From an uncultured Gammaproteobacteria bacterium (GTDB taxonomy: Bacteria; Patescibacteriota; Microgenomatia; Levybacterales; GWA1-39-11), in contig CAYVAJ010000001.1 in NCBI GenBank assembly GCA_964448725.1, positions 71,525 through 135,524 of the forward strand: a stretch of DNA of 64,000 bases. Direction: 5' to 3'. The position numbers and the translations under genes were made by a program. Positions 26,026-44,214 of the stretch are shown here, piece after piece. Below the pieces are notes generated by a model. It saw nothing but the letters and a program-made list of their open reading frames with translations, did no database searches and had not been told where the DNA came from. The first letter of the stretch is position 1; every line of letters begins with the position of its first letter.

Positions 26026-27126
26026 ATGAAAGCACAGCTGCTAATTGAAAATATAGAGCCTTTTTTATCATCACTTGCTAAAGCACTCCCCAACCATTCA
26101 CCTGTTCCTGTGCTTTTAAATATCTTAATCGAAGCAACACACAAAGGAATATACATCTCTGCAACCGACTTAGAACTGGGGATAAAAGTAAAAGTTAATG
26201 GCAAAATAGATGAAGAAGGTTCTGTAACTGTGCCAGGAAAACAATTTATAGAAATTATTAACTCTCTTCCCAAAGGTAAAGTTACATTAACATACGAAAA
26301 AGAAGCGGTAACCCTTGAATCATCTGGTGGAAAAATAGTCTTGCAAACTATTCCAAAAGAAGAGTTCCCAAATCTTTTTGAAGAAAAAGGTGAAAAAGTC
26401 TACAGCTTTTCAAAGGCAGAGCTTAAAGATATTTTTACAAAAATTATATTTGCAGCATCAACAGACGACTCAAGGCCTGAGCTTACAGGGGTATATATTT
26501 CCCAAAAAGAAGATCACATAGACTTTGTTGCTACTGATGGGTATCGTCTTTCACTAAAGAGGGTTTCTGGTAAGCAAATATTAGAGACTGATAATGGAAT
26601 TATTGTCTCGTCTAAATTTATTGCCGAAGCGTTAACACTCAATAGTGATACCATGGATTTTTATGTGTATTCAGAGGGGAATCAGGTGCTTTTAGAAGCA
26701 GATAATACTATTTTAGTCGGTAGACTTATTCAAGGTAACTTTCCTAACTATGAGCGTGTTATTCCTCAAGAGGGCTCTACCAGTGCAGTGATTGATATTG
26801 AAGAGTTCTCAAAATCAATAAAGCTTGCAGCAGTTTTTGCTCGTGAAAGTGCAAATATTGTGCGGATTAGAATTGCAGATAAACAACTAAGCCTCTTTTC
26901 TCGTTCATCAGGAATTGGAGAAGGGGATATTCAAATTGCCGTTGAACAGACAGGTGAGGACAATGAAATTGCATTTAATGTAAAATTCTTAAGCGATCTA
27001 CTGAGAGTGGCTGGTGAGAAAAGAATTACACTTGCTATTAACGGCCCTCTTGAGTCTGCGCTTTTTACCCTTGAAAAAGATACCGACTTTCTGCACGTTA
27101 TCATGCCTGTTCGAGTGCAAGAGTAA
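26026..27126 (+). CDS. dnaN: DNA polymerase III beta sliding clamp
   Basis: 366 aa; three-domain clamp pattern (LLNILIEATHKGIYISATDLELGIKV ... VRVQE). Confidence 0.9.
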   Translation: MKAQLLIENIEPFLSSLAKALPNHSPVPVLLNILIEATHKGIYISATDLELGIKVKVNGKIDEEGSVTVPGKQFIEIINSLPKGKVTLTYEKEAVTLESSGGKIVLQTIPKEEFPNLFEEKGEKVYSFSKAELKDIFTKIIFAASTDDSRPELTGVYISQKEDHIDFVATDGYRLSLKRVSGKQILETDNGIIVSSKFIAEALTLNSDTMDFYVYSEGNQVLLEADNTILVGRLIQGNFPNYERVIPQEGSTSAVIDIEEFSKSIKLAAVFARESANIVRIRIADKQLSLFSRSSGIGEGDIQIAVEQTGEDNEIAFNVKFLSDLLRVAGEKRITLAINGPLESALFTLEKDTDFLHVIMPVRVQE

Positions 27127-27133: not shown

Positions 27134-27844
27134 CTACCTCTTTTGCTCGGTTGTCCAATGAATTTGGAATTCTAGAGTGTTTACTCCGAGTGACTCAAGG
27201 GTGGTGATTGTTTCATCTTTATACTGTTGGATTTGCTCTGGAGTAGGAGTACTGATGTCCTGAATATATATCTTTCCCTCAAATTTTTTCTGATCTAAAT
27301 CAAAGTAGACAAAGTAATTATCAGTCATGAGTGGAAGCTTATCATACCAGGGATAGTTAGTATAAATATCTGACACCCACTTTCCAAATTCTTCATCTGC
27401 TTTTGCCTGATTTTTAATTTGGTCATCTACAGGTACTTCCTCAGGATTTTCAGGAGTTGAGAAGCTCCAAGAATATAGAGGATTTGAGAAATAGGTAACA
27501 GTAAGCGAATATGAGTTTTGCATCCATAATGGAGCTGTTGGGGTGAATGTGAGAGAATTATCTGTTTGCCATTCATAGTTTCCGGTGATTCCCGGTTGTG
27601 CAACTATTTGTATGTGAGATTGTTCAGAATTAGAAAGTGATCTGGAGAAGGTAATAGAAATCGGTTCATAAAGACTTACTACTTGTGTCTGATTTGATGG
27701 GGTTACCGATGTAACAGAAAATGATGCAGAAGGCTCACTGGTATTATTAAAAATATATAAAATTGAGAACAATATCAGGAAGCTACCTGCAAGCACAGAG
27801 AGTATAATAATGATAAATTTTTTATATGTACTAAAGATATGCAT
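27134..27844 (-). CDS. hypothetical membrane-anchored protein with predicted beta-sandwich ectodomain (last gene of the T4SS-like operon)
   Basis: TM helix followed by a S/T-rich beta-strand region. Start moved to the internal ATG (MHIFSTYKK...) to remove overlap with the upstream gene. Confidence 0.4.
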   Translation of the reverse strand: MHIFSTYKKFIIIILSVLAGSFLILFSILYIFNNTSEPSASFSVTSVTPSNQTQVVSLYEPISITFSRSLSNSEQSHIQIVAQPGITGNYEWQTDNSLTFTPTAPLWMQNSYSLTVTYFSNPLYSWSFSTPENPEEVPVDDQIKNQAKADEEFGKWVSDIYTNYPWYDKLPLMTDNYFVYFDLDQKKFEGKIYIQDISTPTPEQIQQYKDETITTLESLGVNTLEFQIHWTTEQKR

Positions 27845-27861
27845 AAGTAAGTAGTAAAATA

Positions 27862-28551
27862 CTATCCACCAAAGCCTCTTGCCGGGTATGGAACACCTTG
27901 AATATTCCAATTTACCACCGTATATCTATGTCCATGGCGAGATGAGTTTGAGTCTATGGTGTCGATATATCCGTCTCCGTTACTATTTAAAGATATGCCG
28001 CTAACCATCGCAACATGTTCACTCCCTGTATGGGTACCTGAGACTTTTTCAAAAAAAATTGCATACCCTGGTTTTATCTGCTGAAGAGCTTGTTTTCGGT
28101 CAGCAGTGTCATATTCTACATAATGATAGCCTGATGCTTTTTTCCAATAGCTTCTCATTGATACTACTGCCTGATGGTCAAAATTTAAGCCTGATCTCCC
28201 TGAAAGATTATAAGCGTCTATAATTGAATTAGTACACCAATACAGTCCGTTTGAACTAGTACTTACTTCATGTCCTTGTCTGATAACTGCTGTGTGCGAT
28301 CCGTTTGTAATGTTTGAAACCATACGATTATAATATCCCCAAACTCCTGTTTGTAGCTCTGCATTAATTCTTTTGTTCCATTCAAGTGCTTGATTTGAAT
28401 CGATAGAGATCGTATTTGGTCTTTCTGCAGGGTTTCCCACACGAGTCGATGTCTCATTGCTTTCTTGTGCGTAAAGAGGAAAAGGGTAAAAAAGCACAGA
28501 CATTAAAAGGAGAGGAAAAAAATATAAGGTTGTTTTATTAATTATTTTCAT
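27862..28551 (-). CDS. secreted CHAP-domain peptidoglycan hydrolase
   Basis: Signal peptide MKIINKTTLYFFPLLLMSVLFYPFPLYAQ. CHAP-like Cys (LYWCTNSIIDAYN) and His (GSEHVAMVSGI) in the typical order. Confidence 0.65.
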   Translation of the reverse strand: MKIINKTTLYFFPLLLMSVLFYPFPLYAQESNETSTRVGNPAERPNTISIDSNQALEWNKRINAELQTGVWGYYNRMVSNITNGSHTAVIRQGHEVSTSSNGLYWCTNSIIDAYNLSGRSGLNFDHQAVVSMRSYWKKASGYHYVEYDTADRKQALQQIKPGYAIFFEKVSGTHTGSEHVAMVSGISLNSNGDGYIDTIDSNSSRHGHRYTVVNWNIQGVPYPARGFGG

Positions 28552-28572
28552 TAGAGGATTTTGGTTTAGTTT

Positions 28573-29733
28573 CTAGAAATTGAATTGATAAAGTTGTCCG
28601 CTAATAGTGAATAATATTGTGCGTGGCTGGTTAGTAGTAAGCAGTGAATTTGCGTCTATATCATTTGCATCAACTCCTTTTGGTAATGAAATCATCTCTC
28701 TTTCAAGTGTTGTAGGGTCAATAAGTACGAGTGAATTACCAAGAAGGGTGTAAATTTTCTCATCTGTTCCCCACGCAGATTTTTCAAGATAGAGATTTTC
28801 TCCTGCACTTCTTATCTCCTGGGTCTTGCTATTTACGACATATAATTCATAGGTAGCATTTGTTTTTAACCGGTCTGTAGTATGTTGAGAAAGAAAGAAA
28901 TTACCATTAGGTGAGGGAAGAGCACCAAATACTCTCCCATCGGTATTTAGTTGTGAGGATGATCCTGCGGAAAGGTCGTTGAGGAAAAATGTAATATCTT
29001 GAATAAAAGGTTCAGCAGGTGCAAGATACGTTGCAACAAGAGTATCAGTTATGTAATTCATTGCAGTTTGATTTCGAGTAAATGAAATATTTGTTCTCTG
29101 AGGACTGGAACCGTCAGGATCTGAATTAAACAGTACAAGCTGTGGGTTTTCAGGCTGTGATTCATCGAGTAATAAGTAGCTCAGACGTGAACCATCAGGA
29201 GAAAAGTTAATTGTCCGAATATTTTCATCAAGTTTGGTCAAGGTATTTGTTGCAACAGTATATCTCCATTTTTCTTCTGCAAAAGTATCTGTGCGGAGAA
29301 TAATGATTGCAGAAGCAAGTGTAGGTGACCATATAATATTTTCAACATCACCTTGAATAGGAGCAGATAATGCTTGTCTAGCATTTGTTGTTAAATTAAG
29401 GGAGTACAAACGGGAATCTGTTCCTGAAAAATAGTAGACTGATTGGTCTTTGTAGATAGGAAAGAAGATTTTTTTATCCTCTTCATACACAGGTATTGTT
29501 TTTGCTTCTTCAACAGGAAGCGAATGCCCAACGGGAGATAAATTTGAAGGAGTATTAGTAGGCGCAGGTACGTTGTTATCTGGGCCTTGGATGCGTGCCA
29601 TAAGCAGTGCACCAAGAACTATTAAAACAACAATAATGGCGAGTACAGAGGAAATGAGCACAATGTGTTTTTTAATGATCGATATCATACCTTCTGATTG
29701 TGGTGTGTAGTGTTGTTGTATTTGTTCGTCCAT
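28573..29733 (-). CDS. membrane-anchored PD40/TolB-like beta-propeller repeat protein
   Basis: N-terminal TM; repeats such as INFSPDGSRLSYLL and LPSPNGNFFLSQ are typical of PD40 propellers. Confidence 0.5.
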   Translation of the reverse strand: MDEQIQQHYTPQSEGMISIIKKHIVLISSVLAIIVVLIVLGALLMARIQGPDNNVPAPTNTPSNLSPVGHSLPVEEAKTIPVYEEDKKIFFPIYKDQSVYYFSGTDSRLYSLNLTTNARQALSAPIQGDVENIIWSPTLASAIIILRTDTFAEEKWRYTVATNTLTKLDENIRTINFSPDGSRLSYLLLDESQPENPQLVLFNSDPDGSSPQRTNISFTRNQTAMNYITDTLVATYLAPAEPFIQDITFFLNDLSAGSSSQLNTDGRVFGALPSPNGNFFLSQHTTDRLKTNATYELYVVNSKTQEIRSAGENLYLEKSAWGTDEKIYTLLGNSLVLIDPTTLEREMISLPKGVDANDIDANSLLTTNQPRTILFTISGQLYQFNF

Positions 29734-29753
29734 AATATTATCTTAACAAATAT

Positions 29754-30659
29754 TTATCCGCAGATATTGTGTTCTCGAGGAAATACTGCGCCTGGGGAAA
29801 GCTCATAATGGAGATGGACTCCTGTACTATACCCAGTATTACCCATTCCTCCGAGATAATCACCTTTTTTTACTGTCTGCCCTTGTCGCAGATGAGAAAC
29901 GCTATTTGAAAGAAGATGACCATACAATGCCCATGTTCCATTTCCTTCAATGATTATATGGGTTCCGTACCCATTTCCGGAACAGAGATTGTAGTAGGTA
30001 TTACATCCGGTAACAGTAAGAGTAGTGATCACTCCATCAAGAGTTGCATAAATAGGTGTCCCTTCAGCCATTACAATATCAACTGCGTTTAATGACCCAT
30101 GAGTAAATCCTCCTGAGTAGGGACATTGTGCAATATCAAATCTTCCGTTAACTGGCCATCCCCCCAGTGTATTAGGATCAATACTTCCTATAGGAGAAGA
30201 GTTTGGTTGTTCTGTAGTAGGATTACCAACTCGTACTCTTACTCTTTCACTTGCCTGTCTTTCGGGAGACGAAGGAGGGAGTCCTTCTTGACAGCTTACT
30301 GTTTCACACCAGCCTGTTGTCTGATTACATACTACATTTCCTCCTCCACCAGAAGTGCAGCTCGGAGAAAGAGTCTCACAATATCCAGGTGCTTGACGGC
30401 AGTCTGGACCTCCTGAATTAAGGGTTATGTTTTGTGATTGACAATCTGTATTTGCAGAGCATACTCCTTCCCCTGCAGGTCCTAGATTGCCACAGAAATA
30501 GGGATGAGTTGTAGGGCAGTTGTTGGTAGTTTGCGCAAAACTCGGTTGACTGGTACCAAAATACGCTCCTATAAAGAGTAGGAGAATAGGAAGAATATAC
30601 ATCCAAGAAGAAGATAAGAGGGTTTTGGATAGAAAGGAGCCTATAACTTTACCAACCAT
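29754..30659 (-). CDS. secreted M23/LytM-family metallopeptidase with Cys-rich N-terminal domain
   Basis: C-terminal GYGTHIIIE...ALYGHL...GVHLHYEL (HxxxD / HxH M23 motifs); more than 15 Cys in the N-terminal 120 aa; signal peptide ending in AQ. Confidence 0.75.
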   Translation of the reverse strand: MVGKVIGSFLSKTLLSSSWMYILPILLLFIGAYFGTSQPSFAQTTNNCPTTHPYFCGNLGPAGEGVCSANTDCQSQNITLNSGGPDCRQAPGYCETLSPSCTSGGGGNVVCNQTTGWCETVSCQEGLPPSSPERQASERVRVRVGNPTTEQPNSSPIGSIDPNTLGGWPVNGRFDIAQCPYSGGFTHGSLNAVDIVMAEGTPIYATLDGVITTLTVTGCNTYYNLCSGNGYGTHIIIEGNGTWALYGHLLSNSVSHLRQGQTVKKGDYLGGMGNTGYSTGVHLHYELSPGAVFPREHNICG

Positions 30660-30734
30660 TATTTCATCATAGCAAAATAAAAGACATTCGCACAATTATT
30701 ATAAAAATGAGAAAAATGTTTTTTTGTCTCACAA

Positions 30735-31271
30735 TTAACACCCAAGGGGTAATGGGCTAAACTCTGTATTTGTCTCGCGCAGTGATCGTGAAACAGAATA
30801 ATTTAAGTAGAACGTCAATGGTAAATAGCAAATATCAGTGCGCGAGAATCCTTCTTGCAATAAGAAAGTCTCAACGTCCTTCTTTGCTTGCTCAATATCG
30901 GTAGTCAGAATTTCTGACATAAATGTATCAGGAGATTCAATATATTCAAGTCGATACGTAGAGGTCTCACTCACAATACCACTGATATTATTCAGGCGGG
31001 CAAGGAGATTCTGCCGGACTATTTTACCCTGATCTGAGAGTTCAGGGCGTTGTTGTATTATGTCTATAAGTTTTCTTTTTGCATCATCATTGTATGGGAC
31101 GTTTTCTCTGAGTATCTTTCCTTGGGAGACAGGATAGGGTGTGGGAGTAATAGAAATTTCTTCGTTTTGGGAGCGTCTTTGGTCAGTATTATAAAGCAAT
31201 ATAAGCGTCAAGCTTATTACTGCTACAACGAGCCCTATTGTAATTGTAATAATAAAAAGTTTTTTATTCAT
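30735..31271 (-). CDS. hypothetical bitopic membrane protein (candidate VirB8-like scaffold)
   Basis: MNKKLFIITITIGLVVAVISLTLILL TM, then a ~150-aa extracytoplasmic domain. Start placed at the internal ATG at 31271 to avoid overlap. Confidence 0.35.
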   Translation of the reverse strand: MNKKLFIITITIGLVVAVISLTLILLYNTDQRRSQNEEISITPTPYPVSQGKILRENVPYNDDAKRKLIDIIQQRPELSDQGKIVRQNLLARLNNISGIVSETSTYRLEYIESPDTFMSEILTTDIEQAKKDVETFLLQEGFSRTDICYLPLTFYLNYSVSRSLRETNTEFSPLPLGC

Positions 31272-31281
31272 ATTATGCAAT

Positions 31282-33213
31282 TTATTCCGGTATTGTTCCC
31301 CACAGATGATCCGCACACGCCCAGTACTCAAAGGGCCCAGCGTTTCCTGGTTCAAATAATAGTTTATTATAATTTATTGCATTAGATGTCTGCTTTCTCC
31401 AGTCTACATCTCCATGGTCAAACTCGTTTGCTCTCCCTCTTCCCATTTGATATAGCCCCCATGCTCCTGCGGGGTCAGGGGTTCCGATACTCTCCTGAGA
31501 TGCATAGGCATTTGGATTAAAACCTGATTCACACGGAATAATATTATTAAACCATTCATCGGCATATTGTGGGTCAAGCTCTTTGAGTAGTGTATAGAGT
31601 TTGCTTTTGTCGCTTGGACGTCGGGCAGCAAGCAATGTACATGCAGGATCACCGAAATTCGCTCCAGTATCATCATCATAATAAGGATTATTGAGTGCGT
31701 AGTCTCCCGTATAGTAACCGTCGCAGGTTTCGGCATTGGCAGGTGTTTCTTCTCCTGAGCTAATAGGGGAAGCGCTTCCTCCAACCTCTTCTGCAGTTGC
31801 TTGATTATCTACATAAATATCATTTTGTGTTGGCTTTACGGTTAACAAAAATGTTTGATTAACAGTCTGAGGAGAAGAAGTACTTGAACTACCAGTATAT
31901 ACTTGTGCAAGTGCACTCATTCGATTAGAGAATCTTTGCATGTTTTCTCTATACCAGCTCCCCCAACCTTGCATTGTTGCACTCCAATTATCACGTGCTG
32001 CAATATCACCTGCGATCTCAAGAGAATTAGCTATAGCATTGATAGCTGGGTCCATAAGGAGAATAGCAATTAACTGTCGTGCTTGTGCTTGCTGTGGTGA
32101 TCCGTCTGGTGTTCCTGGAGATCCAGCTTCTTGCACGATTTGCTCTATTGATTTTGCAGGAAATGTGACTGGATTTGTTATCCCGCCTTCATCAATTACT
32201 TTCTGTCCAACTCTTTGGACTGTTGCTGCGTCACCTGATCCATATACAGCAATAAAGTCATCAACCAAATGATCACTTACCTGGGCAACTTGGACTCCCC
32301 CTACTTGCCAACCACCAGAATAGAATCCTCCTGCACAGCCCATGTTAATATTTATGTCTTTCATGTCTCTACAGTTCCAGGCGTAGGGATTTGCGGCTGA
32401 ACCTTCGATTGCGACTGTCCATATAACAGAAAGGAAGGGGTCTGCGTATTTAGGATCGTTATTGTGGACTTTTGATAAAATATAATTTTGATATTGATTG
32501 ACTAGACTCCCGAGTCTATTTGCCCGCTCAATCGTCTCAGGCGCGAAAGCAATATCTGATTCGCCATTGGGTACTGGGAGATTATAAGGTGCTTGGGTAT
32601 ATTTTGTAACATCTATCTGCGTTGTCTGCGCAGGAGGAACAGTTGGTCCGACAATGGTTAGATTATCATTAAGTGACCATTTGACACGTGTTACTTTCCC
32701 TGATGAATCTTTTTCTGCAGTGTAATTTCCTGATGCACTCACAAACTCTGTGTTAGCAGGGATAGGATCATATACCATGACATTTCCGGTTCCGGAATAG
32801 GAAACATTGATGGTATAGGTGATATTTTCTCCGTTACCAATTGCTTCAGGACCAGACTTCTGGAGTGTTACATTTGAAGGCGTTCCATCGCCTGAAACAG
32901 GAGAAGGAGTTGGTTGAGTAGTAAAATAGCTGTCATAATCTGCATCGTCTCCAAGAAGGATAAATATAAGTAGCAGTATGATAATAACAATAATAAGAAT
33001 AACCCAAAACCAAGGATTTGCAGCCATTGCTCCAGTACGTACGACTGTCATGGCAGTTCTAAGTCTTCTAATGTTTCTTGAGGCGTTTTTTATTGATTGA
33101 GCTCGTGCACGTAATCGTCTTGCATTAGAAACTGCATTATTTGCACGATCTATAATACCTTTTCTCTCATCACTTTGTTGTGGCCTTTGTAGAGGGTTTT
33201 CTCCGTTATCCAT
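31282..33213 (-). CDS. VirB1-like lytic transglycosylase (SLT domain) with TM anchor and Ig-like/DUF11-like region
   Basis: C-terminal IIPCESGFNPNAYAS...GAWGLYQM (SLT catalytic Glu and the GLMQ-type motif); N-terminal TM WFWVILIIVIIILLLIFILL; start overlaps the VirB4 stop by 8 nt. Confidence 0.65.
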   Translation of the reverse strand: MDNGENPLQRPQQSDERKGIIDRANNAVSNARRLRARAQSIKNASRNIRRLRTAMTVVRTGAMAANPWFWVILIIVIIILLLIFILLGDDADYDSYFTTQPTPSPVSGDGTPSNVTLQKSGPEAIGNGENITYTINVSYSGTGNVMVYDPIPANTEFVSASGNYTAEKDSSGKVTRVKWSLNDNLTIVGPTVPPAQTTQIDVTKYTQAPYNLPVPNGESDIAFAPETIERANRLGSLVNQYQNYILSKVHNNDPKYADPFLSVIWTVAIEGSAANPYAWNCRDMKDININMGCAGGFYSGGWQVGGVQVAQVSDHLVDDFIAVYGSGDAATVQRVGQKVIDEGGITNPVTFPAKSIEQIVQEAGSPGTPDGSPQQAQARQLIAILLMDPAINAIANSLEIAGDIAARDNWSATMQGWGSWYRENMQRFSNRMSALAQVYTGSSSTSSPQTVNQTFLLTVKPTQNDIYVDNQATAEEVGGSASPISSGEETPANAETCDGYYTGDYALNNPYYDDDTGANFGDPACTLLAARRPSDKSKLYTLLKELDPQYADEWFNNIIPCESGFNPNAYASQESIGTPDPAGAWGLYQMGRGRANEFDHGDVDWRKQTSNAINYNKLLFEPGNAGPFEYWACADHLWGTIPE

Positions 33214-35629
33214 GGTTTAGTGGACTGGTATTTGGTTCTGTACCAGATGCTGACGGAGCAGGAGGTGTTCCAGAGGGCTGTGGAGGGGTGGCTTGCTGGA
33301 CAGTAGCATCTTGAGCAGAAGGTGCGGTATTTTGTGGAACAGATTGTGCAGGGCTACTTTGTGGAGCACCAAATGAGAGTGGAGCCGCAACTGGTTCTGT
33401 TTGCGGTATAGCTGCTGTGTTTTCTAAAGGAGGTGGTGGTGTTTGTTGAGTATTTTCAGGCATAGGAGCAGGAGCGGGAGTGTTTTGTTGGACAGGCTGA
33501 GTTTGAGGAGCGACATTTGGAGTCTCTGATTCCGCAAGAGCTTCTGTAATAGTATCAGGAAGCTTTTCTTCCATTCCTTCATCAGAGGGAGCAGGGCTTG
33601 GTGGTGTTTCTTGTTCTTGTTGATTTAATAAATCTTGTGGTTTTGAAGTAATTAAATCATATTCAAATTGTGACGCAATAAATTGAGCTGAAATATGATT
33701 TTGGCCAGCAAAGAGTAGTCCTTCTCCAACTTGCGCGGTAAGTAGAAATTGTTTTTCTCCCTCAGAAAGGAAAAATGTTTTTGCTAAGGCCTCAACTTCT
33801 GCAGTTCCTTGTTTGAGTAATATTTGAATAGATGAGTTAGACACGATTGCTTTACCGTATTCATTGTTAATAAAATCACCAATATCCTGAGTCAGGGTTG
33901 TCATTCCTAAGTAGTATTTGCGGGCACGTTTTGCGATTCCTTGCAAGAAGCTAGCAGAATCTGGGTATTTCATCATATACCATGCTTCATCGACGATAAG
34001 CAAGCGTTTTTTCAGCTTATTACGAACACGGCTCCAGATAAAGTCTAAAATAACATGCATAGCAATAGGGCGAAGCGAGTCTTCTAACTGCTTGATAGAA
34101 AAGACCGTTAACTGACTGCGAATATCATAGTTTGTCTGGGCATTAAGCAGTCCTGCAAATCCTCCTTTAACAAATTTTTCAAGTCGGAATGCAAGTTCTT
34201 TTGCTTCTGCTTCCTCCATGTTAAGGAGTGTTTTATAGAGGTCTTCTAAAATCGGCGGTTCTTTATCATAGGTTGATGGGTCAGGAGTAATTCCTTTCTG
34301 TTTGTAGACGAGTACGAGAGAGCGATCCAGAATTGCTTCCTGAGTTGGAGTCATATCCCCAAGCATTGTTTTGAGTAATCCATGTAAGGAGAGAATTTTA
34401 ATTCCTAACTGAGCTTCAGTTCTGTCTTCAGACAAAAGTGCAAAAGGATTTATTTTTACTGCTGAAGTTTTTGAAAAATCTATGTACTCACCCTCAAGTG
34501 AATCGCAGAGTGTTCGGTACTCGTCTTCAGGGTCAATAATCAAAATCTCTGCATCAAACATCATCTGTCTCAATACTTCAAGCTTAACCAAGAAAGATTT
34601 ACCAGAACCTGATTTACCAAAAACGACTTCATTGGCATTTTCAAATGAAAATCGGTCTACAATGACCAGAGAGTTATTGAGGGTATTTACTCCATAAAGA
34701 ATCCCATCTGGTTGAGAAATTTCATATGAAGTAAAAGGAAATGTTGACGCCACAGAGGTTGTATCCATATTACGGGTAACAAAAAGCTTGTCTGAACCAT
34801 ATGGCATAGTAGTTTTAAAACCTTCTTCCATTTGCAGTGTCGCAGCTTTGAGCAACAACATGTTTGAAGCCAACAGAGTCTGAAGTTGTTTTGATTTTTC
34901 ATTGAGTTCAGGAATGGTGTCAGCGCTAATTGTGACATAGAGACCAAATTGGAAGAAACGTTCTAGTCCTCGTGCAAGTTCTTCTCGCAAAGCAATAGCA
35001 TCTTCTAAGGAAGCCTGAACTTTTGGATCAGGTTCAAGCCCAGCTTTATGATCTGCATCAATTGTTGCTTCCATTTCAGCAATTTTTCGTCTGAGGTTTG
35101 CAAGCACATCTTTACTTTCAATAGGATAGATAAACATCGAAATATTCATCGTCTCTTTATGATCAATTAAAATAGAAAGCCAATTAGGAGATACCTCACG
35201 AGGATAATCAGCCACAAAAAAGGTGCGGAAAAATCGGTCACCAACTCGTACATGCTTAAAATCTATTTCAGCAGAAGCTGGTGCAATGACATCTGCAAGA
35301 GATACAGATCCTTGACGTAGTGCTTCAAGTGTTGCGTGTTGTGCTGCTGCTGATTGTTGGGGTGTAGCACCTTTTGGCATAGCAGCTGCTTGAGGCTGAG
35401 GGTTCTGCTGCATTGTCTGTGGTTGTCCGTTTGCTTGTGGAATAGGTTGAGGAATCTGAGAAGCTGCACCTGCTTGAAGAACAGGCTGTTGCATTTGTGG
35501 AGCAGGAGGATTTCCAGGCATTTGCTGTGTTCCTGGTTGTATAGGCGGCACTCCTGGAGCAGATGCAGGCATGCCCGTCTGGGCAACGGGTTGTGATTGT
35601 GTAGGCTTTTTTTTAAATAAGTCAAACAT
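33206..35629 (-). CDS. VirB4/TrbE/CagE-family T4SS ATPase (ATPase portion) with PQ-rich N- and C-terminal low-complexity extensions
   Basis: Walker A VVFGKSGSGKSFLV, Walker B RLLIVDEAWYMM, and the IAPASAEIDFKHVRVGDRFFRTFFVADYPREV region typical of VirB4; about 100 aa of P/Q-rich sequence at the N-terminus and about 140 aa at the C-terminus. Confidence 0.85.
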   Translation of the reverse strand: MFDLFKKKPTQSQPVAQTGMPASAPGVPPIQPGTQQMPGNPPAPQMQQPVLQAGAASQIPQPIPQANGQPQTMQQNPQPQAAAMPKGATPQQSAAAQHATLEALRQGSVSLADVIAPASAEIDFKHVRVGDRFFRTFFVADYPREVSPNWLSILIDHKETMNISMFIYPIESKDVLANLRRKIAEMEATIDADHKAGLEPDPKVQASLEDAIALREELARGLERFFQFGLYVTISADTIPELNEKSKQLQTLLASNMLLLKAATLQMEEGFKTTMPYGSDKLFVTRNMDTTSVASTFPFTSYEISQPDGILYGVNTLNNSLVIVDRFSFENANEVVFGKSGSGKSFLVKLEVLRQMMFDAEILIIDPEDEYRTLCDSLEGEYIDFSKTSAVKINPFALLSEDRTEAQLGIKILSLHGLLKTMLGDMTPTQEAILDRSLVLVYKQKGITPDPSTYDKEPPILEDLYKTLLNMEEAEAKELAFRLEKFVKGGFAGLLNAQTNYDIRSQLTVFSIKQLEDSLRPIAMHVILDFIWSRVRNKLKKRLLIVDEAWYMMKYPDSASFLQGIAKRARKYYLGMTTLTQDIGDFINNEYGKAIVSNSSIQILLKQGTAEVEALAKTFFLSEGEKQFLLTAQVGEGLLFAGQNHISAQFIASQFEYDLITSKPQDLLNQQEQETPPSPAPSDEGMEEKLPDTITEALAESETPNVAPQTQPVQQNTPAPAPMPENTQQTPPPPLENTAAIPQTEPVAAPLSFGAPQSSPAQSVPQNTAPSAQDATVQQATPPQPSGTPPAPSASGTEPNTSPLNHG

Positions 35630-35723
35630 GGGCAGTAAATTTAAACTTAAAATATAAAATTAAAAAACAAAAATGCTATCAATACTTAGGATCATTTTAA
35701 GCTCTCAGTTTTACATTTTACAT

Positions 35724-36347
35724 TTACAATATAATATTTGTTACATCTTCAGATTGAAAATCGAGTGAAACTGTTTCCTGGTTATAGAGTTCATACAGTA
35801 CCTTTGCTACTTCGCTTGATTCAAGTGGTCGTGCAGTAAGTCCCATACGTTGAATCTGACTAATTACTCCATTTTGCTTACTTATAACTCCATCACGAAT
35901 TCGTTCCTGTAGTGTTTGTTTCTTGTTATTTGGAGCAGTAGGACCAAGTTCTAAAGAAGAAAAAGGAATAACAACATAGATTTTTTTGTTCAGTAAATTT
36001 TCTCCTTTAACCAGTTCCTGAATAAACTGCTTATACATAACTAAATGCTCTGATATACGGGGATCTTGTGCTTTTTCTACTTTAGCTTCAATCATCTCTA
36101 AATAATCAGTCATATCTACTTTTTTAGAAACAATAAAAATTTGTACTGCAGATGAGAGTGAGTTAAGAAATGACATAAATCCATAAATGCGGGCATTTTG
36201 TTCATCTGCTGAGAGAAGGAAGAAGTTAACAGACGATACCTCTAAAATTGAAGAGGCATTATTTCCTTTGAGGAAAAGAATTCCGTCTTTAATATCTTCT
36301 ACTTCTGTAAACTGTTGAGTTGTTGAGTTGATCTTTGCTTTTGCCAT
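35724..36347 (-). CDS. VirB4 N-terminal-domain-like protein (separate ORF; split VirB4)
   Basis: IKDGILFLKGNNASSILEVSSVNFFLLSADEQNARIYGFMSFLNSLSSAVQIFIVSKKVDMTDYL resembles the N-terminus of Gram-positive VirB4 homologs (TraE/PrgJ/TcpF-like). A 94-bp gap and a different frame separate it from the ATPase ORF. Confidence 0.5.
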   Translation of the reverse strand: MAKAKINSTTQQFTEVEDIKDGILFLKGNNASSILEVSSVNFFLLSADEQNARIYGFMSFLNSLSSAVQIFIVSKKVDMTDYLEMIEAKVEKAQDPRISEHLVMYKQFIQELVKGENLLNKKIYVVIPFSSLELGPTAPNNKKQTLQERIRDGVISKQNGVISQIQRMGLTARPLESSEVAKVLYELYNQETVSLDFQSEDVTNIIL

Positions 36348-36404
36348 AGTTCTAATAATATCAGTATACCGTATTCTGGATGCAGTTATTAAGAATTTTT
36401 ACTG

Positions 36405-37724
36405 TCATACCGTAGATACAGGACTTTGTGTTGGTGCTGGCATATTTCCAAACAAGTCTCTTCGTAATTTTTCCCTTTGGTCAATTGAAGTTATCTCAAG
36501 CGGGTTAAATATTTCTCCTTTCATCTCAACTTGTACTGTCTCAAATTCATGATTTTTTCCAGGATCGTCAAAATATATTTTATATGTACCATTAGGAAGC
36601 GGAGTAGCAGAGATAAATTGACCTAAAGCATTTGTTTTAAATGCTCTTACTGGTATCTCATTTGTATCAACTACTTCAACAAGAATGTTTTGAAGCACTT
36701 TTCCACGTGGATCTTTAATTATTCCTAGTACAATATTAGGAATATCAGGAAGAGAGGGGAATCCTGAAGTAAGATTGGATTGTGGGGTGATAGTTTTTAC
36801 AGTATTTGCTTTTGGCGCTTCTTTCTGTGTTGGGGTAACTGGTGTGGCTTGGGAAACTTGCTTTGCTTGCTGTAATACTTTTTGCTGATAAGATGCTGTT
36901 TGCCCTAATGATTCTGCTAATTTTTGCTCTAGATCTCGGACTTTTTGTTCAAGCTCGGCAGTGTATCCTGCTGTTTGTTCGTATGTCCGAATATCTTGAA
37001 TCTCTTTTTTAATCTCTGCAACTTCATCTGCTGCTTTTGGCGCAGGAGAAGCAACTGGTTTTACTACTTCTGTTTGTGCCATTTTTTGGTTAATTTCTTC
37101 TTCTGATACCTGAGGTAATACAGGTTTAACAGGATTGACTACTTCCTGTTCTTTTATAACTGGCTGGACTCTTACTGGCATAACTTTTTTCGTTTCGTTT
37201 GCAAGTGGGGTTGGTGTAACAATAGCTGTTCCAGGATTATCAAAGGAAGCTTTTAAGCTTGCAAAGTACTGCATCTCCTGATTGTCAGGTCTGAAATATG
37301 AGTTGCGCAGTGCACTTGCCAATGCTTGTCTTTTTGCAGTATCTTTTGACTGTTGTGGCGCTTGTTTCGGTTGCTGCGGTTGTTGCACTGTTTTTGGAGG
37401 TTTTAAAAATTCATACTGTGAGAGATCAATTCCTTTTTTGCGATAAATAAACTGATTTTCTCGTGGTACTGACCGGGCAAAATAAATAAGCATTTTATCA
37501 AGTGGTCTACCACCTACTGGTACAAAAGCAAGTGCTACACCAATAAGACCAAAAATTATCATAAGTGGGTACTTGAGCAAGAAGTGGAGAGGAGAGACAA
37601 AGGTAATGGTACAAAAAATTCCCGCTGCAACAACATATGCAAATTGCTTAACAGTCATTGAACCGATAATTTTAAATTTAAACCCAGTAACGTCTTGAGG
37701 AATTGGATGATTCTCCATATACAT
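36405..37724 (-). CDS. PrgI/VirB3-like membrane protein with long C-terminal extension (PQ linker, coiled coil, beta-sandwich domain)
   Basis: N-terminal HPIPQDVTGFKFKIIGSMTVKQFAYVVAAGIF matches the PrgI-family opening motif and is followed by a TM hairpin. The ORF track starts at a TTG; ATG 37724 is chosen. Confidence 0.5.
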   Translation of the reverse strand: MYMENHPIPQDVTGFKFKIIGSMTVKQFAYVVAAGIFCTITFVSPLHFLLKYPLMIIFGLIGVALAFVPVGGRPLDKMLIYFARSVPRENQFIYRKKGIDLSQYEFLKPPKTVQQPQQPKQAPQQSKDTAKRQALASALRNSYFRPDNQEMQYFASLKASFDNPGTAIVTPTPLANETKKVMPVRVQPVIKEQEVVNPVKPVLPQVSEEEINQKMAQTEVVKPVASPAPKAADEVAEIKKEIQDIRTYEQTAGYTAELEQKVRDLEQKLAESLGQTASYQQKVLQQAKQVSQATPVTPTQKEAPKANTVKTITPQSNLTSGFPSLPDIPNIVLGIIKDPRGKVLQNILVEVVDTNEIPVRAFKTNALGQFISATPLPNGTYKIYFDDPGKNHEFETVQVEMKGEIFNPLEITSIDQREKLRRDLFGNMPAPTQSPVSTV

Positions 37725-38039
37725 CAGCGTATAACGTGAAAATTTTAGATTCAAGCATCTCAAACTGTGTCAAAGGACAACAAAAGGTGTGAAAAGGAGA
37801 TAAAAAGCCTTAAAGTGGGCAGAGAAGAGATGGATTGTAGGTATTATGTAATGTCTGTCACTAAAAAATACAATGGAGTATGTTAACATCTGGGTAACTG
37901 AATAGAATTGCTGCCCATCGCGAGAGTTTAATTGTTGTGGCGTGATAGTACAACTGTCCTGGCTCTTTTTTACTGATATATAAGTAATTGCTTATAAAAA
38001 TCAGAATCTTTTTCCTATGCTCATAACATACAAAAAATA

Positions 38040-38933
38040 TTATTTTGTAGCGCTCGAGACAATGCTGAAAGTGCCTGCAATAAGCATCAATAATAATAAC
38101 CCAGCAAGCTGTGTATTGTCAGATTCAATAAGTTTTTTCAAACGGTTAGCTTCTTCAGGGTTATCATTACTAAGTTCAATAATAATTTCTTCCATTCGGT
38201 TTTGACGAAATAAATTTAACATTTCTTGGGCACGGGGATTCTTTTCTGCAAGAGATTCAATCTTTTCTTTATAGATTGTGCTTAAGTTAGTTATAGATTC
38301 TTGCAGGTTTTCTGGTAAATCTTGTACTGCCGTCTCTCCATTTTGGAGAATATCAATATATGTTTGAAATATTACTTGCTCATCGTCAGTAAACTGTGAT
38401 GCAATTACATCTCTTTCTGCTACGAGATAGGCAAATGCAACTTCTTTACGAGGAAGGACTTGAGTGATTAAGTTGCCATCAGGCATTTTAATGGTACAGG
38501 TAAGTGTACTCTCATCTCCGTTAGTGATTCCTTGGATTTCACCATTCTGCCCATTTATGGGAATCTGCATTGGGTTCTCACCAACCATTTTATATTTTTG
38601 GTCACTGTAACCCAACAAAAGTTCAGTCCCTTGTTTCAGTTTTTTCTGCGCTGGATCATCAATTTCCTCAAGCTGCTTTCCGTTAAATTCTTCAGATGCG
38701 GTAATTATCATAAGTGCACCAATTTCTTGAATTTGTTGAGCATATATAGCAGTTCTTGATTGCTCATCCTCTATACTTTCCTCCATAGTATCGGTATCAT
38801 TGGGTATATTTTCTTGAGGTTCTGAGTTATCAGTATTATCGTTTTGCTCTACATTTCCCGACAATGTACCAGCTTCTGAAGAGTCATTCGTATTAATCTC
38901 AGCTTCAGTCGGATGTGGTGACTGTTCTTCCAT
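38040..38933 (-). CDS. hypothetical acidic protein with C-terminal TM anchor
   Basis: About 300 aa, D/E/N-rich N-terminus, C-terminal LAGLLLLMLIAGTFSIVSSATK helix. Start at ATG 38933 (the track uses a TTG). Confidence 0.4.
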   Translation of the reverse strand: MEEQSPHPTEAEINTNDSSEAGTLSGNVEQNDNTDNSEPQENIPNDTDTMEESIEDEQSRTAIYAQQIQEIGALMIITASEEFNGKQLEEIDDPAQKKLKQGTELLLGYSDQKYKMVGENPMQIPINGQNGEIQGITNGDESTLTCTIKMPDGNLITQVLPRKEVAFAYLVAERDVIASQFTDDEQVIFQTYIDILQNGETAVQDLPENLQESITNLSTIYKEKIESLAEKNPRAQEMLNLFRQNRMEEIIIELSNDNPEEANRLKKLIESDNTQLAGLLLLMLIAGTFSIVSSATK

Positions 38934-38984
38934 ATAATAAGCATACTTGAAAACACTTACAGTAATCAACTAAGATTTAAGTAT

Positions 38985-41801
38985 ATGCCAGACATAATCC
39001 CAGAGCAGCAACCTGTTCAATCTTCATCAAGCGGAGTTTCTACTATGGAGAATCGTTTCCGTGCTGTTACATTAAAGCGAAATGATTTTATTAAGGAAAT
39101 AGATACGGGATTGATAATAAACGATAAAAATAAAGAGGTGGGGAGAAAAAATGAACATGTAACGTTTAGTGAGGATCTTCGCCAGCAATACTCAACATTT
39201 CTCGATAATTATGTTCGCAACCTTATTGAAATTCAGAACAAGGACAGAACGTTTTTGGAGACAAAAAGTAGAATACAAGACAAATTAATGCTTAATCTTT
39301 TATCTTCAGAAGAAAAGGACCCCCAAGGAAGAGCAATTACTACTCAAGAGGGATGGTCTCTAAGAAAGGTAGATGAGGCGAAAATCCAACAGTTTTTAGA
39401 AACTCAACAGGGATGGACGCTTGCAAATATGGCGCTTGAACAATATACCTCAATGATGATGTTTGCACTCTCACTCGAAGCATCTATTGTGCCTGAAGGA
39501 GATAGGGATAAGTTATTAAGAAATTTTAAGATTGATAATGGTATCAATCAAGGAGCGTTCTGGAAATGGGCAGCAAACAGACGTCCCCCGATCTATCCTG
39601 AAAAACCTGGTTTTTTTAAGAGAGGTAAAAGGACGGAAATTAAGCCTAACCCTGACGTACTGTTGGCGATGAAAAATAACCCTGAAGAAGCAAAGTTTAT
39701 TTGGGAGCTTACTGGAATTGATGTTGATGATTTTACCATTGATCCAGTAACTGGAGAGGTTATAGCAAATGCCGGTGTTAAGATAACTGACGCAGTTGAG
39801 GAGAAACAAAAAAGTATTATTGGAAATTTGAAGTCAAGACAGCAATTTTACGAGTCTTTAGGAATACCTTCAAAACAGTTGGACGCAATGGATTCTCAAT
39901 TTATATATAGCTATGTAAATGGAAGCTCTGAAGAAATTCCAACCCATGTACACCAAAGGATTATTGACCGTTTCAAACCAAACAGAACAATAGTTGATGC
40001 AGCAGGATTACACCCCGGTGAACCTGGTTTTGATCCTAACACCGTTAATGTAGAAGAAGTATTGCAAAAATACTTAAAGGTAAAACGAGATATATTTGTG
40101 CGGCTTGCTCAGGAAGCTGTTGCGCGGCAAGTACAAGGTACTGAAGACTTAAGTAAATCACTTACTGTAATTCGTACTGCGTTGGAAGATGTAAGAAAGG
40201 GTAGAGAGGGAACTATTGCACAGCGAAGAAATAAGGAAGCACAGGAAAGAATTGGGGTACTAGAAAAAGAAAAGCATGAGATTAGTGAAAAGAGAAGACC
40301 GTTGGAAGAGTTCGCTGAAAAACAAAAAGCAGTTCAGCAAACAGTCAAAGAACTTTCCGAATCATATGGTGTAAATATCCCTGCAGGAAGCGATTTTGAG
40401 ACAACGGTAACTACTGAACTTAATACTATTCAAAACCAGATTGAAGGAGTGACTCCTCCCGGTGGCGGAGCACGTGCAGGGGGTATTGAGCAGCAAATTG
40501 AGCAAGAAAGGCTTGCAATGCAAAATTGGATCGATACTCAAACAAATGCAGCTATTGCAGCACGTGTTGGTGCGTTGGGAGGAAGGGGAAGTCTACCTCA
40601 AAGTGAGATAACTAATATTGTAACTGGATATAGGGAGACTGCTGAGAGTTCATATGGAGCTCGTATTCAACGGTTAGAGGCGCAAAAAAGACAACTAGAA
40701 GAACGGCGGAATAATCTTAATACTCTTTTGTCTCGAAATAGAAACGCAGTTAGAGAAGAACGAGAATCTGAACAAAAAATTGTTAACCAAGCTCCAAAGG
40801 AGCTTGATGCTATGAGAGCATCGTATGAATTAGTTGTAAATTCTGCCGGGGCAACAATTACCGCAGACATGCTTGAAAACAGGAATGTTGACCAATTAAT
40901 TCCGCTATTAACTGCAGCGCCATATAATCAACCGAATACGACTCCTGAACAACAAGCTGCACTGCGTGAATTAGTTATCAGAGCAAAAACTGAACTGAAG
41001 GGAGAAAGACAAGAAGGATTTGAGCCAAGTCCAGCAAACCAGACACAAGAGTACAACGATATTATTAATCAAGCAGGTGCAACTATTACATCAAATGATC
41101 TTCTTTCTCTCTCAGATCAAGAGATTGAAAATAGGCTTACGCAACCTCCATATAATTTTCCTGCTGCAGGTATTCATGATCGTATAAATCTTGCCCGTGC
41201 AGAAGCACAAAAGAAACTGCGAATTCGTTATGCGGTACTGCTTGATGAACGGGAATCAGACCTAGGCAACCAAATCAAACAATTGGAAGATAAAATGAAA
41301 TCACAGACAAGCTTTGATAGAGAAGAGAAAATTCTACAAACAGCAGAAAGAGCGATAAGCAGGCAAGAAGAGGTATTTACTAATGCGATTGATATTGTTA
41401 GTGACATTGGTCGGTATACAAAGGTTGATCATGTGACAAATGCCGATACTACATACTCAGAGTCAGAAAGAGCAGCAGGTTATTCTAAAGGGTATTATGA
41501 ACTAATGGATTATCTTTTTTCTTATCAAGAAAACCCCGATATATCTGATAGAAATGAGTATTTTCAGGCCATTCAAGAATCACTTCCTCCTGAAAAACTT
41601 GCTGTAATTCTTAATGAGCGATTAAATCTTCGGCTAATTCCTGTTCCGCCTGGTTTTGTTGGTCCACTAGGAGCAAATATGATCAATCTTGAAAATGTAT
41701 TTCAACGAATGAGTAGAAAGAAATTATCTCCACGTGACATGCAAAGGACATTGTCAGATGTTATTATAAGATTGAAAGACGAAGCGATAGCAATAGTATG
41801 A
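38985..41801 (+). CDS. large hypothetical coiled-coil protein (938 aa)
   Basis: Long ORF with consistent codon usage and heptad-like E/K/Q-rich segments; no recognised catalytic motif. Confidence 0.5.
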   Translation: MPDIIPEQQPVQSSSSGVSTMENRFRAVTLKRNDFIKEIDTGLIINDKNKEVGRKNEHVTFSEDLRQQYSTFLDNYVRNLIEIQNKDRTFLETKSRIQDKLMLNLLSSEEKDPQGRAITTQEGWSLRKVDEAKIQQFLETQQGWTLANMALEQYTSMMMFALSLEASIVPEGDRDKLLRNFKIDNGINQGAFWKWAANRRPPIYPEKPGFFKRGKRTEIKPNPDVLLAMKNNPEEAKFIWELTGIDVDDFTIDPVTGEVIANAGVKITDAVEEKQKSIIGNLKSRQQFYESLGIPSKQLDAMDSQFIYSYVNGSSEEIPTHVHQRIIDRFKPNRTIVDAAGLHPGEPGFDPNTVNVEEVLQKYLKVKRDIFVRLAQEAVARQVQGTEDLSKSLTVIRTALEDVRKGREGTIAQRRNKEAQERIGVLEKEKHEISEKRRPLEEFAEKQKAVQQTVKELSESYGVNIPAGSDFETTVTTELNTIQNQIEGVTPPGGGARAGGIEQQIEQERLAMQNWIDTQTNAAIAARVGALGGRGSLPQSEITNIVTGYRETAESSYGARIQRLEAQKRQLEERRNNLNTLLSRNRNAVREERESEQKIVNQAPKELDAMRASYELVVNSAGATITADMLENRNVDQLIPLLTAAPYNQPNTTPEQQAALRELVIRAKTELKGERQEGFEPSPANQTQEYNDIINQAGATITSNDLLSLSDQEIENRLTQPPYNFPAAGIHDRINLARAEAQKKLRIRYAVLLDERESDLGNQIKQLEDKMKSQTSFDREEKILQTAERAISRQEEVFTNAIDIVSDIGRYTKVDHVTNADTTYSESERAAGYSKGYYELMDYLFSYQENPDISDRNEYFQAIQESLPPEKLAVILNERLNLRLIPVPPGFVGPLGANMINLENVFQRMSRKKLSPRDMQRTLSDVIIRLKDEAIAIV

Positions 41802-42168: not shown

Positions 42169-42870
42169 ATGCATATACTCTTACTCATTGCTGAGTTAAT
42201 TTTCCTTTTTATAACCTCACGTTTTATTTCCAAATACCTTTTCATGCTTTTTTATAATCTCTTTAGAAAAGAGAGTGTTGCTGCGCGAGTAGTTGCATTT
42301 ATCTTTTTCCCAGGTACTCTTATCCACGAGCTTGCGCATTTTCTGATGGCAAAAACTTTATTCGTTCGTACAGGAAATATAGAATTGATGCCTGAAATAC
42401 AAGGAGATACTCTAAAATTAGGAAGCGTTCAAATTGCAAAAACTGATATTTTGAGACGTTTTTTAATTGGTGTTGCACCTCTTTTGATCGGGTCTATTCT
42501 TCTTATCATTATAATTTACTCATTTTTTAATTTTTTCCCTTTAACGAGCTTTGAATGGAGCTGGCAATATGTTTTATCAGTTCTGGTCGTGTTGTATGGA
42601 ATTTTTGTGATAACAAATACCATGTTTTCAAGTAAAAAAGATATGGAAGGAGCATTAGGCTTATTTATACTGTTAGTATTTTCTCTTTTAGTAATTTTTG
42701 TAGCTGGGAGAGGAGAGTGGGTAGTGAGAGTCATGGAAAATATTATTAACAATCCAACTATTCAGCAATATGTCAATAAAATAACTATATTCTTGTTTTT
42801 CCCAGTCATTATTAACGGTGTCGTGCTTCTCACCTACAATGGATTGAGGAAATTGAGAAAAAGGAATTAA
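42169..42870 (+). CDS. polytopic membrane protein with intramembrane HExxH motif (putative zincin-like membrane peptidase)
   Basis: FFPGTLIHELAHFLMAK within a hydrophobic helix; 5-6 predicted TM helices. Confidence 0.4.
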   Translation: MHILLLIAELIFLFITSRFISKYLFMLFYNLFRKESVAARVVAFIFFPGTLIHELAHFLMAKTLFVRTGNIELMPEIQGDTLKLGSVQIAKTDILRRFLIGVAPLLIGSILLIIIIYSFFNFFPLTSFEWSWQYVLSVLVVLYGIFVITNTMFSSKKDMEGALGLFILLVFSLLVIFVAGRGEWVVRVMENIINNPTIQQYVNKITIFLFFPVIINGVVLLTYNGLRKLRKRN

Positions 42871-43220: not shown

Positions 43221-43284
43221 AAAATAATTATAGTAACTTGCTCGGAAAAAATCTATTTATAATCGAAAGGTAAAAGGATAAAAA

Positions 43285-44182: not shown

Positions 44183-44214
44183 TATAGATGTATGAAAATG
44201 ATAGATAATATTTG

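Follow-up and report, generated by a model that had tools for sequence, protein, structure and literature searches.

A chromosomal type IV secretion locus convergent with dnaN in Candidatus Levybacteria: a constant core and a modular cassette of wall hydrolases

Introduction

What does a type IV secretion system (T4SS) do when it lies beside dnaA and dnaN, among housekeeping genes and with no relaxase or coupling protein in its neighbourhood? We addressed this question in a 64-kb stretch of contig CAYVAJ010000001.1 (assembly GCA_964448725.1), referred to as the window, whose genome belongs to Candidatus Levybacteria (Microgenomates); NCBI places Levyibacteriota within the Microgenomates group. 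The region under study holds nine minus-strand open reading frames (ORFs), here g1 to g9, at 27134-37763. We consider it likely that this region is the downstream two-thirds of a chromosomal, vertically inherited T4SS locus of the Patescibacteria type, derived from MPF-FATA systems, which is host-directed and non-conjugative. Such a system has already been described, including its lack of relaxases, its location beside dnaA/dnaN and the proposal that it imports from or exports to a host (Wang 2023; Quinonero-Coronel 2025). New here are the wider bounds of the locus, the division into a core and a modular cassette across Levybacteria, and a divergent lysozyme-like family that probably takes the VirB1 role. 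Patescibacteria T4SSs are the best current genetic lead on host exploitation in this group of ultra-small bacteria, being essential in the one tractable species.

The T4SS core and the extent of the locus

The nine genes, in order from g1 to g9, and the two replication genes that follow them are:

36405-37763, minus strand: g1, PrgI/VirB3-like protein (PF12666, 35.9 bits, cutoff 27; PF13620 CarboxypepD_reg, E 6e-6)
35724-36347, minus strand: g2, TrsD-like, the N-terminal domain of VirB4 as a protein of its own (NCBIfam TrsD, E 5.7e-9; PF26593 TraC-like, precomputed)
33206-35629, minus strand: g3, VirB4 ATPase of MPF-FATA (CD1110) type (NF045971, 401.7 bits, cutoff 325; P-loop_TraG, 1.5e-33)
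31282-33213, minus strand: g4, putative anchored modular wall hydrolase, candidate equivalent of VirB1/PrgK/TraG, overlapping g3 by 8 nt
30735-31271, minus strand: g5, bitopic membrane protein of about 178 amino acids from the ATG at 31271 (transmembrane (TM) helix 35-53 in long-ORF numbering)
29754-30659, minus strand: g6, M23 metallopeptidase (PF01551, 70.8 bits, cutoff 28.7; PDB 9gy1, 4e-11)
28573-29733, minus strand: g7, bitopic protein whose ectodomain may be a PD40/TolB-like beta-propeller (TM helix 24-42)
27862-28551, minus strand: g8, peptidoglycan hydrolase with a papain fold (NlpC/P60-CHAP superfamily), predicted to be secreted (predicted C106/H179/N202)
27134-27844, minus strand: g9, TM-anchored Big_5 immunoglobulin (Ig)-like protein, the last gene (PF13205, 3.7e-8)
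26026-27126, plus strand: dnaN, convergent with g9 and ending 7 bp from its stop codon
24485-25825, plus strand: dnaA, lying between DnaA boxes

We found that g2 and g3 together make up a split VirB4, because they cover complementary stretches of one CD1110 VirB4 profile (positions 11-180 for g2 and 174-732 for g3). On its profile matches g3 is a VirB4 of MPF-FATA affinity; it has an intact Walker A motif (GKSGSGKS at 338), is 30-36% identical to CD1110-family VirB4 proteins of Firmicutes and Actinobacteria plasmids, and matches the CedB profile weakly (E 2e-11, far below cutoff). Upstream, g1 probably starts at the ATG at 37724 or 37718 and has two TM helices (38-56 and 67-85), followed by an extension of about 365 amino acids; a PDB sequence search with g1 gave nothing usable. 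We also observe that the g1 extension (residues ~90-452) consists of a P/Q-rich linker, a coiled coil and a CarboxypepD_reg beta-sandwich, is kept across Levybacteria, and would be cytoplasmic under the accepted VirB3 topology, an odd place for a CarboxypepD_reg fold. The tails of g3 (residues 1-100 and 665-807) are P/Q-rich, of low complexity and non-conserved, its relatives aligning over ~100-680 only.

These results agree with an earlier note on this DNA, which had listed nine co-oriented minus-strand genes and a Gram-positive-type T4SS core of PrgI/VirB3-like protein, VirB4 and hydrolase: all nine ORFs are present, and the MPF-FATA profiles score above cutoff. Its calls of PrgI/VirB3, a split VirB4, an SLT-like enzyme, a bitopic protein and an M23 enzyme likewise hold, its TM/beta-sandwich protein is the Big_5 protein g9, its CHAP label has to be loosened, and its PD40 propeller is a possibility only. 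If every gene is taken to start at its first plausible ATG, the gaps from g1 to g9 measure 57, 94, -8, 10, 75, 20, 21 and 17 bp; the 8-nt overlap of g3 and g4 (ATGGATAA), which couples virB4 translationally to the next gene, was thus correctly reported, whereas the reported range of 7-75 bp was too narrow, one gap being 94 bp. No Shine-Dalgarno-like motif was found before the likely start codon of any of ten minus-strand genes (g1-g9 and the preceding u1; 27134-38969). In the 276-bp gap upstream of g1 lies a promoter-like -35/-10 pair (GTGACA-16-TACAAT, 37834-37861, minus strand), a consensus match only.

The nine-gene extent of the system did not hold. The earlier note had missed an upstream array of VirB2-like pilins with a regulator at its head (42.9-48.0 kb), and with these the locus reaches from about 27.1 to 48.0 kb, past the coordinates first given:

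42867-46675, minus strand: VirB2-like pilin array, four matches to PF18895 T4SS_pilin, 5-9 kb upstream of PrgI
42867-43220, minus strand: pil1
43285-43758, minus strand: pil2
43811-44182, minus strand: pil3
44243-44857, minus strand: lipoprotein-like ORF within the array
44960-46675, minus strand: pil4
46723-48033, minus strand: putative regulator heading the array (Trans_reg_C, 2.1e-19; NPHP3_N, 2.5e-4)

The four pilin genes match PF18895 with E-values of 1.8e-8, 3.9e-10, 7.4e-9 and 1.4e-5, and encode two TM helices each and a common GGDKEK motif. The regulator joins a STAND-like P-loop NTPase (GLPGVGKS, Walker A at residue 36) to an OmpR/PhoB winged helix.

A constant core and a variable cassette across related loci

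From a collection with one genome per species we took the 80 loci whose VirB4 is closest and compared them with the locus of the window; counts are over 81 loci, 61 of which reach dnaN. All 80 are from Levybacteria or Patescibacteria metagenome-assembled genomes. The backbone runs in the order regulator, pilin array, variable spacers, PrgI, TrsD, VirB4, variable cassette, and convergent dnaN with dnaA. PrgI is present in 78/81 loci, directly upstream of TrsD-VirB4, and TrsD in 79/81; pilin arrays stand upstream of PrgI in 48/81, and the regulator is syntenic at the head of the array in 25 related loci. Wherever the locus contains dnaN, this gene lies downstream of virB4 and convergent with it (61/61), and the identity of VirB4 follows that of DnaA/DnaN (Spearman 0.78). 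VirB4 divergence thus tracks that of DnaA/DnaN and the convergent dnaN is fixed, which points to vertical inheritance with the chromosome and not to a mobile element.

The stretch between virB4 and dnaN behaves differently. Across the 61 loci it ranges from 0 to 6.25 kb and from 0 to 6 genes, and the cassette of the window, g4-g9, with six genes and about 6.07 kb (27134-33213), is at the upper end of this range. The first gene after virB4 encodes a large protein (roughly 105-1243 amino acids) in 59/61 loci, 29 of which carry the g4 Ig-like domain in it, and the C-terminal enzyme of this protein varies between a g4-type lysozyme-like domain, SLT, a g8-like domain, M23, amidase and M74. Upon clustering, the cassette of the window resolves into three two-gene modules, g4-g5, g6-g7 and g8-g9, an unusually full set. 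The modules are also found apart: locus L035 has a pair resembling g6-g7, L018 has one resembling g8-g9, and in other species different pairs fill these slots. In addition, g8-like or M23 domains are fused to the first post-virB4 protein in eight loci (P0017, L041, L052, L065, L069, L072, L077 and L078). Homologues of g6-g9 are missing from most related loci. L002 comes nearest, with a VirB4 of 80% identity, and already lacks g6-g9, so the set of nine is not conserved as a whole; of the unit drawn in the earlier note, synteny keeps the PrgI-TrsD-VirB4 core. Only PrgI-TrsD-VirB4 is constant; modularity and fast evolution are features of the hydrolase cassette. The 61-locus comparison separates a core (regulator, pilins, PrgI-TrsD-VirB4 and convergent dnaN) from an exchangeable hydrolase cassette. 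In two more distant loci (L074, 7865-7872; L075, 10733-10752), virB4 abuts or overlaps dnaN and there is no hydrolase cassette.

Conjugation genes in the window

Among all ORFs of at least 100 amino acids in the 64 kb, we found no Pfam match to a type IV coupling protein (T4CP), relaxase, integrase or plasmid replication protein, in agreement with the earlier statement that the window has no VirD4 or relaxase. In the 5 kb past the right edge, SpoIID and unknown proteins are encoded, and genes for a T4CP, relaxase, integrase or plasmid replication protein (Rep) are likewise absent. Near the T4SS locus, the P-loop proteins are VirB4 and the regulator only. The flanks carry the housekeeping genes clpB, a Mur ligase, sodA, truB, nrdR, RNR and smpB.

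The enzyme and partner modules of the cassette

In the first module, the predicted architecture of g4 begins with a cytoplasmic tail and a TM helix at 67-87. A DUF11 Ig-like domain (113-184) follows, then a helical, lysozyme-like domain that is conserved (199-442, with E270) and, at the C-terminus, an SLT-like domain (531-639, with E562-S563). This divergent lysozyme-like family probably fills the VirB1 role of the Levybacteria T4SS, and would mostly be missed by standard VirB1 profiles; neither a PDB sequence search with g4 nor searches with profiles of the g4 and g5 families returned anything usable. Its neighbour g5 is the partner of g4: the g5 family (F0) occurs in 24 loci, as a rule directly after the large hydrolase, and C148 and C178 of the ectodomain are invariant in a 12-sequence alignment. 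It found no match in the PDB sequence search and shows no fold recognisable by sequence, and a VirB8-like role for it would be a guess.

The M23 assignment of g6 in the second module is accompanied by weak NCBIfam matches to MepM, NlpD and DipM. We observe the HLH (HxH) motif and the catalytic His, whereas the first zinc motif is H-x6-D instead of HxxxD, with a 3-residue insertion relative to 9gy1; because of this altered motif, M23 peptidase activity is uncertain. The protein has 17 cysteines, 13 of them between residues 60 and 135, and its N-terminus, judged by eye, resembles a signal peptide (..SFA/QTT). Beside it, g7 is nearly an orphan. A word-indexed search of 5.8 billion proteins returned none but g7 itself and the PDB sequence search no match, and its relatives, at 25-27% identity, are in L035 and L059. 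Several propeller families of Pfam match it, all below threshold (E 0.008-0.08), and SPDG/SPNG motifs are seen by eye, from which a PD40/TolB-like propeller is possible.

Upon examining the third module, we found no Pfam match for g8 and nothing usable in a direct PDB sequence search, whereas an exhaustive HMMER search yielded 217 relatives (a word-indexed search gave 3). The family keeps the motifs YWC(106)T, EH(179) and DSN(202), with C106 nearly invariant and H179 invariant; C106 is the sole Cys of g8 and its predicted nucleophile, and H179 and N202 go with it. CHAP (PF05257) matches 7/73 of the g8 relatives, with a best E of 4.8e-4, and many relatives are C-terminal domains beside SLT, amidase, beta-lactamase-fold or S11 domains; in P0017 and L041 a g8-like domain is fused to a g4-like protein. 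The AlphaFold2 model of g8 (pLDDT 90.7) gave Foldseek matches to RipA, RipB, CD630_03720, an S. aureus CHAP amidase and Tse1 (probability 0.9-1.0, E 2e-3 to 0.1), and so resembles NlpC/P60 (RipA, RipB) and CHAP (5t1q, 2k3a) structures alike. Judging from this model, g8 is an enzyme of the NlpC/P60-CHAP superfamily, not strictly a CHAP: the papain-like fold and the conserved Cys and His of the original call stand, and strict CHAP membership, with no Pfam match, does not. Its N-terminus is signal-peptide-like by eye, and neither g6 nor g8 has another TM segment. Elsewhere, hhalign links family F7 weakly to the g8 domain (78%); we considered that every penultimate cassette gene might be CHAP-like and rejected this, hhalign finding F4 and F10 unrelated to the g8 domain. 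The family of g9 (F8) is related to F6 (hhalign 99%) and F5 (95%), which hold the same last position in about 26 loci.

Interpretation and rival explanations

The host-directed, non-conjugative reading, which the earlier note had also reached, is the one that published work favours (PMC10633639, PMC12102498). One argument once offered for it, that three hydrolases go beyond the needs of a cell's own apparatus, fails. The conjugative plasmid pCF10 encodes a single anchored protein, PrgK, in which LytM, SLT and CHAP domains are combined; of these the SLT domain alone is active and the others regulate it (PMC11323569). Because PrgK holds the same three classes, the number and diversity of hydrolases are no evidence for a foreign target.

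By analogy with MPF-FATA systems and Southlakia, VirB4 docked at the membrane via PrgI would power the building of a channel together with a VirB2-type pilus. To let this structure pass, the hydrolases, both anchored and secreted, would make local openings in the peptidoglycan of the symbiont itself, much as PrgK acts in pCF10, and possibly in the host wall too. The pilus or channel would then contact a host bacterium and move protein, DNA or other macromolecules, serving host-dependent growth and not plasmid conjugation. In the literature, the proposed role of Patescibacteria T4SSs is the import of DNA or macromolecules from hosts (PMC12102498), and a need for the T4SS in host-dependent, epibiotic growth has been shown in Southlakia only, by transposon sequencing (PMC10633639).

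Several points weigh against this reading. We know of no Levybacteria host or culture. The negative for relaxase and T4CP covers the 64 kb only; in many Patescibacteria genomes T4CP/VirD4-like homologues are found far from virB4 (PMC12102498). A VirB6-like channel subunit gave no Pfam, NCBIfam or PDB match, the candidates being the membrane proteins u6 (~9 TM) and u4 (6 TM), and no VirB8-like protein was identified in the window, g5 being a candidate only; we considered u6 as VirB6 and g5 as VirB8 and claim neither, since no test spoke for them. Furthermore, promoter and terminator scans of the region gave site numbers at chance level. Finally, g6 and g8 seem soluble, with cleavable signal peptides by eye. 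PrgK, in contrast, is anchored, and soluble enzymes would suit a site of action at a distance from the membrane of the producer.

This last point leads to the strongest alternative, in which the hydrolase set is aimed mainly at the partner wall and the machine takes up DNA or nutrients. It overlaps the host-directed reading and differs in the enzyme target alone, and we regard it as possible, if rather doubtful. The signal-peptide-like g6 and g8 are closer to secreted bacteriolysins than to anchored PrgK, and the fold of g8 also matches the type VI secretion amidase effectors Tse1/Tae1. Additionally, the cassette is highly variable (0-6 genes, with swapping and the orphan g7) over a near-identical core, as would be expected of diversifying host-directed factors, and the peptidase and lysozyme genes downstream of virB4 are essential in Southlakia (PMC12102498). 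However, an ordinary conjugative T4SS has the same three enzyme classes in its PrgK, and L074 and L075 do without any cassette between virB4 and dnaN.

The cassette is a natural place for host-specificity factors, and it also yields VirB1 candidates that profiles miss in Microgenomates. One might combine these thoughts: the virB4-dnaN stretch would consist of fast-shuffling modules of an enzyme and an anchored beta-rich partner, the secreted M23 and NlpC/P60-CHAP enzymes may hit the host wall and set host range, and the central domain of g4 would be a new lysozyme-like family, the missing VirB1 of Microgenomates. We put this joint proposal forward as a speculation that is unlikely to hold in full.

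It is improbable that g6-g9, possibly along with g4-g5, serve a reduced genome as autolysins of the housekeeping kind or in cell separation, and are no part of the T4SS. M23 and NlpC/P60 enzymes are typical division hydrolases, and g6 has its weak matches to MepM, NlpD and DipM; g6-g9 are absent from most related loci, and the 75- and 94-bp gaps could hold internal promoters. Against this, g4 overlaps virB4 by 8 nt, a large hydrolase comes first after virB4 in 59/61 loci, in the same position as the hydrolase gene of Gram-positive conjugative operons, and in eight loci this leading protein itself includes a fused g8-like or M23 domain; nor would housekeeping autolysins be expected to swap between species whose VirB4 is 80% identical, as with L002.

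An ordinary conjugative system (an integrative and conjugative element (ICE) or its remnant) with coupling protein and relaxase outside the window, which the CD1110 conjugative family of g3 and the distant VirD4-like genes of many Patescibacteria (PMC12102498) would allow, is very unlikely, given the absence of integrase, Rep, relaxase and T4CP from the window and the 5 kb past its right edge, a position convergent with dnaN that is fixed in 61/61, a divergence that tracks DnaA/DnaN (rho 0.78), the housekeeping flanks, and published work that found relaxases in no more than 103 genomes of Patescibacteria and t4cp to be non-essential for Southlakia (PMC12102498).

Position relative to the presumed replication origin

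The locus had also been said to flank oriC immediately. The DnaA boxes of the dnaA-dnaN region are:

24367, 24387, 25855 and 25866: perfect DnaA boxes
25883: DnaA box with one mismatch

Of the five perfect boxes (TTATCCACA) in the 64 kb, four are around dnaA. Two are upstream of the gene, overlapping a TTGACA/TATACT promoter, and the dnaA-dnaN spacer contains two perfect boxes and the one with a mismatch. An oriC at dnaA is plausible because DnaA boxes cluster there, and its predicted placement is not firm because GC skew, positive on either side of dnaA, has no sign change or inflection in the window. The box cluster thus speaks for the claim, whereas the intervening dnaN and the lack of a skew change at dnaA speak against it. 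If oriC is at dnaA, the putative T4SS operon would be head-on to the rightward fork, an orientation kept in 61/61 relatives.

Upstream genes and flanking regions

Between PrgI and the pilin array, and beyond the regulator, we find the following genes:

38040-38969, minus strand: u1, spacer between pilin array and PrgI
38985-41801, plus strand: u2, 938 amino acids, coiled coil, no TM helix, no P-loop
41798-42160, plus strand: u3, acidic protein of 120 amino acids
42169-42870, plus strand: u4, six TM helices, HELAH motif
48095-48451, minus strand: 23S_rRNA_IVP/bAvd-like four-helix-bundle gene
48578-53776, plus strand: protein of 1732 amino acids, no Pfam match
53816-55465, minus strand: u6, 549 amino acids, ~9 TM helices
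55530-55895, minus strand: second 23S_rRNA_IVP/bAvd-like gene

None of u1-u4 has a significant Pfam or NCBIfam match. The genes u2 and u3 adjoin pilins or PrgI in 11-12 loci, and in L031, L036 and L080 they are co-oriented directly upstream of PrgI; that u1-u4 are part of the T4SS we infer from synteny only. Among the pilins, pil4 (571 amino acids) has an ectodomain of ~470 residues fused to a C-terminal VirB2-like pilin domain and weakly matches the Mycoplasma ICE pilin-like family Mbov_0395; it may be a tip or adhesin pilin.

The two Avd-like genes bracket the 1732-aa gene and u6, and these two bracketed genes are syntenic with the T4SS locus in L008, L049, L063, L078 and L079. A diversity-generating retroelement near the Avd-like genes was considered and dropped, direct repeats of at least 40 nt being absent from 47-57 kb. 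On the far side of dnaA, a predicted surface protein of 3301 amino acids (4964-14869, plus strand) combines six SdrD_B repeats, CBM6/CBM35 modules, CarboxypepD_reg repeats and a polysaccharide-lyase domain, ends in a dockerin, and is a candidate giant protein for host attachment or glycan degradation.

Comparison with known systems

The closest likeness is to the T4SSs of other Patescibacteria. A survey of the group found a monophyletic VirB4 clade related to MPF-FATA (Quinonero-Coronel 2025, PMC12102498), with TrsD, PrgI and VirB2-like arrays widespread, especially in Microgenomatia and Saccharimonadia, and with T4SSs that often lie beside dnaA/dnaN, commonly so in Microgenomatia, and rarely have relaxases (PMC12102498); a 2025 review restates these points (PMC12857230). 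The locus of Southlakia epibionticum (SEML1_0006-0019) resembles Gram-positive systems in its composition; its pilin array is essential, and neither a coupling protein nor a relaxase could be recognised (Wang 2023, PMC10633639). It shares with the surveyed loci and the present one PrgI/VirB3, TrsD, an MPF-FATA VirB4, a divergent pilin array and hydrolases downstream of virB4. The cluster without relaxase or coupling protein (here within the window) and the chromosomal position beside dnaA/dnaN are likewise common to them. We detected no VirB6 homologue, which is also what the survey states for Microgenomatia (PMC12102498). We note two differences: PrgI is associated with virB4 in 22.6% of cases in the surveyed Microgenomatia (PMC12102498) as against 78/81 loci here, and for the VirB1 role we find a divergent DUF11-Ig and lysozyme-like family with swappable C-terminal enzymes.

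The MPF-FATA T4SSs of Gram-positive bacteria (pCF10 Prg/Pcf, pIP501 Tra, pGO1 Trs and CTn2) show the same order of PrgI, (TrsD), VirB4 and a large wall hydrolase. With PrgK of pCF10 the present locus shares a set of M23/LytM, SLT-like and NlpC/P60-CHAP-type enzymes, here spread over three genes, two of whose products are apparently secreted. In contrast to these conjugative systems it has no relaxase, VirD4/TcpA, oriT or mobile-element genes in the window and is chromosomal and vertically inherited, and they in turn lack the VirB2-like pilins and the PrgI extension of ~365 amino acids of the Levybacteria locus. A Brevibacillus plasmid with a related VirB4 (NZ_CP144923.1) illustrates this: it has the same order of PrgI, VirB4 and NlpC/P60 hydrolase, but also MobC, a relaxase and VirD4 within 8 kb.

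Finally, the DNA uptake systems ComB of H. pylori and Ced of archaea resemble the locus in having a VirB4-family ATPase without a relaxase, import being proposed; they differ in that only the VirB4/HerA fold is in common, ComB being a diderm VirB2-10 set. In Southlakia, comEC-dependent competence is separable from the essentiality of the T4SS (PMC12102498, PMC12857230).

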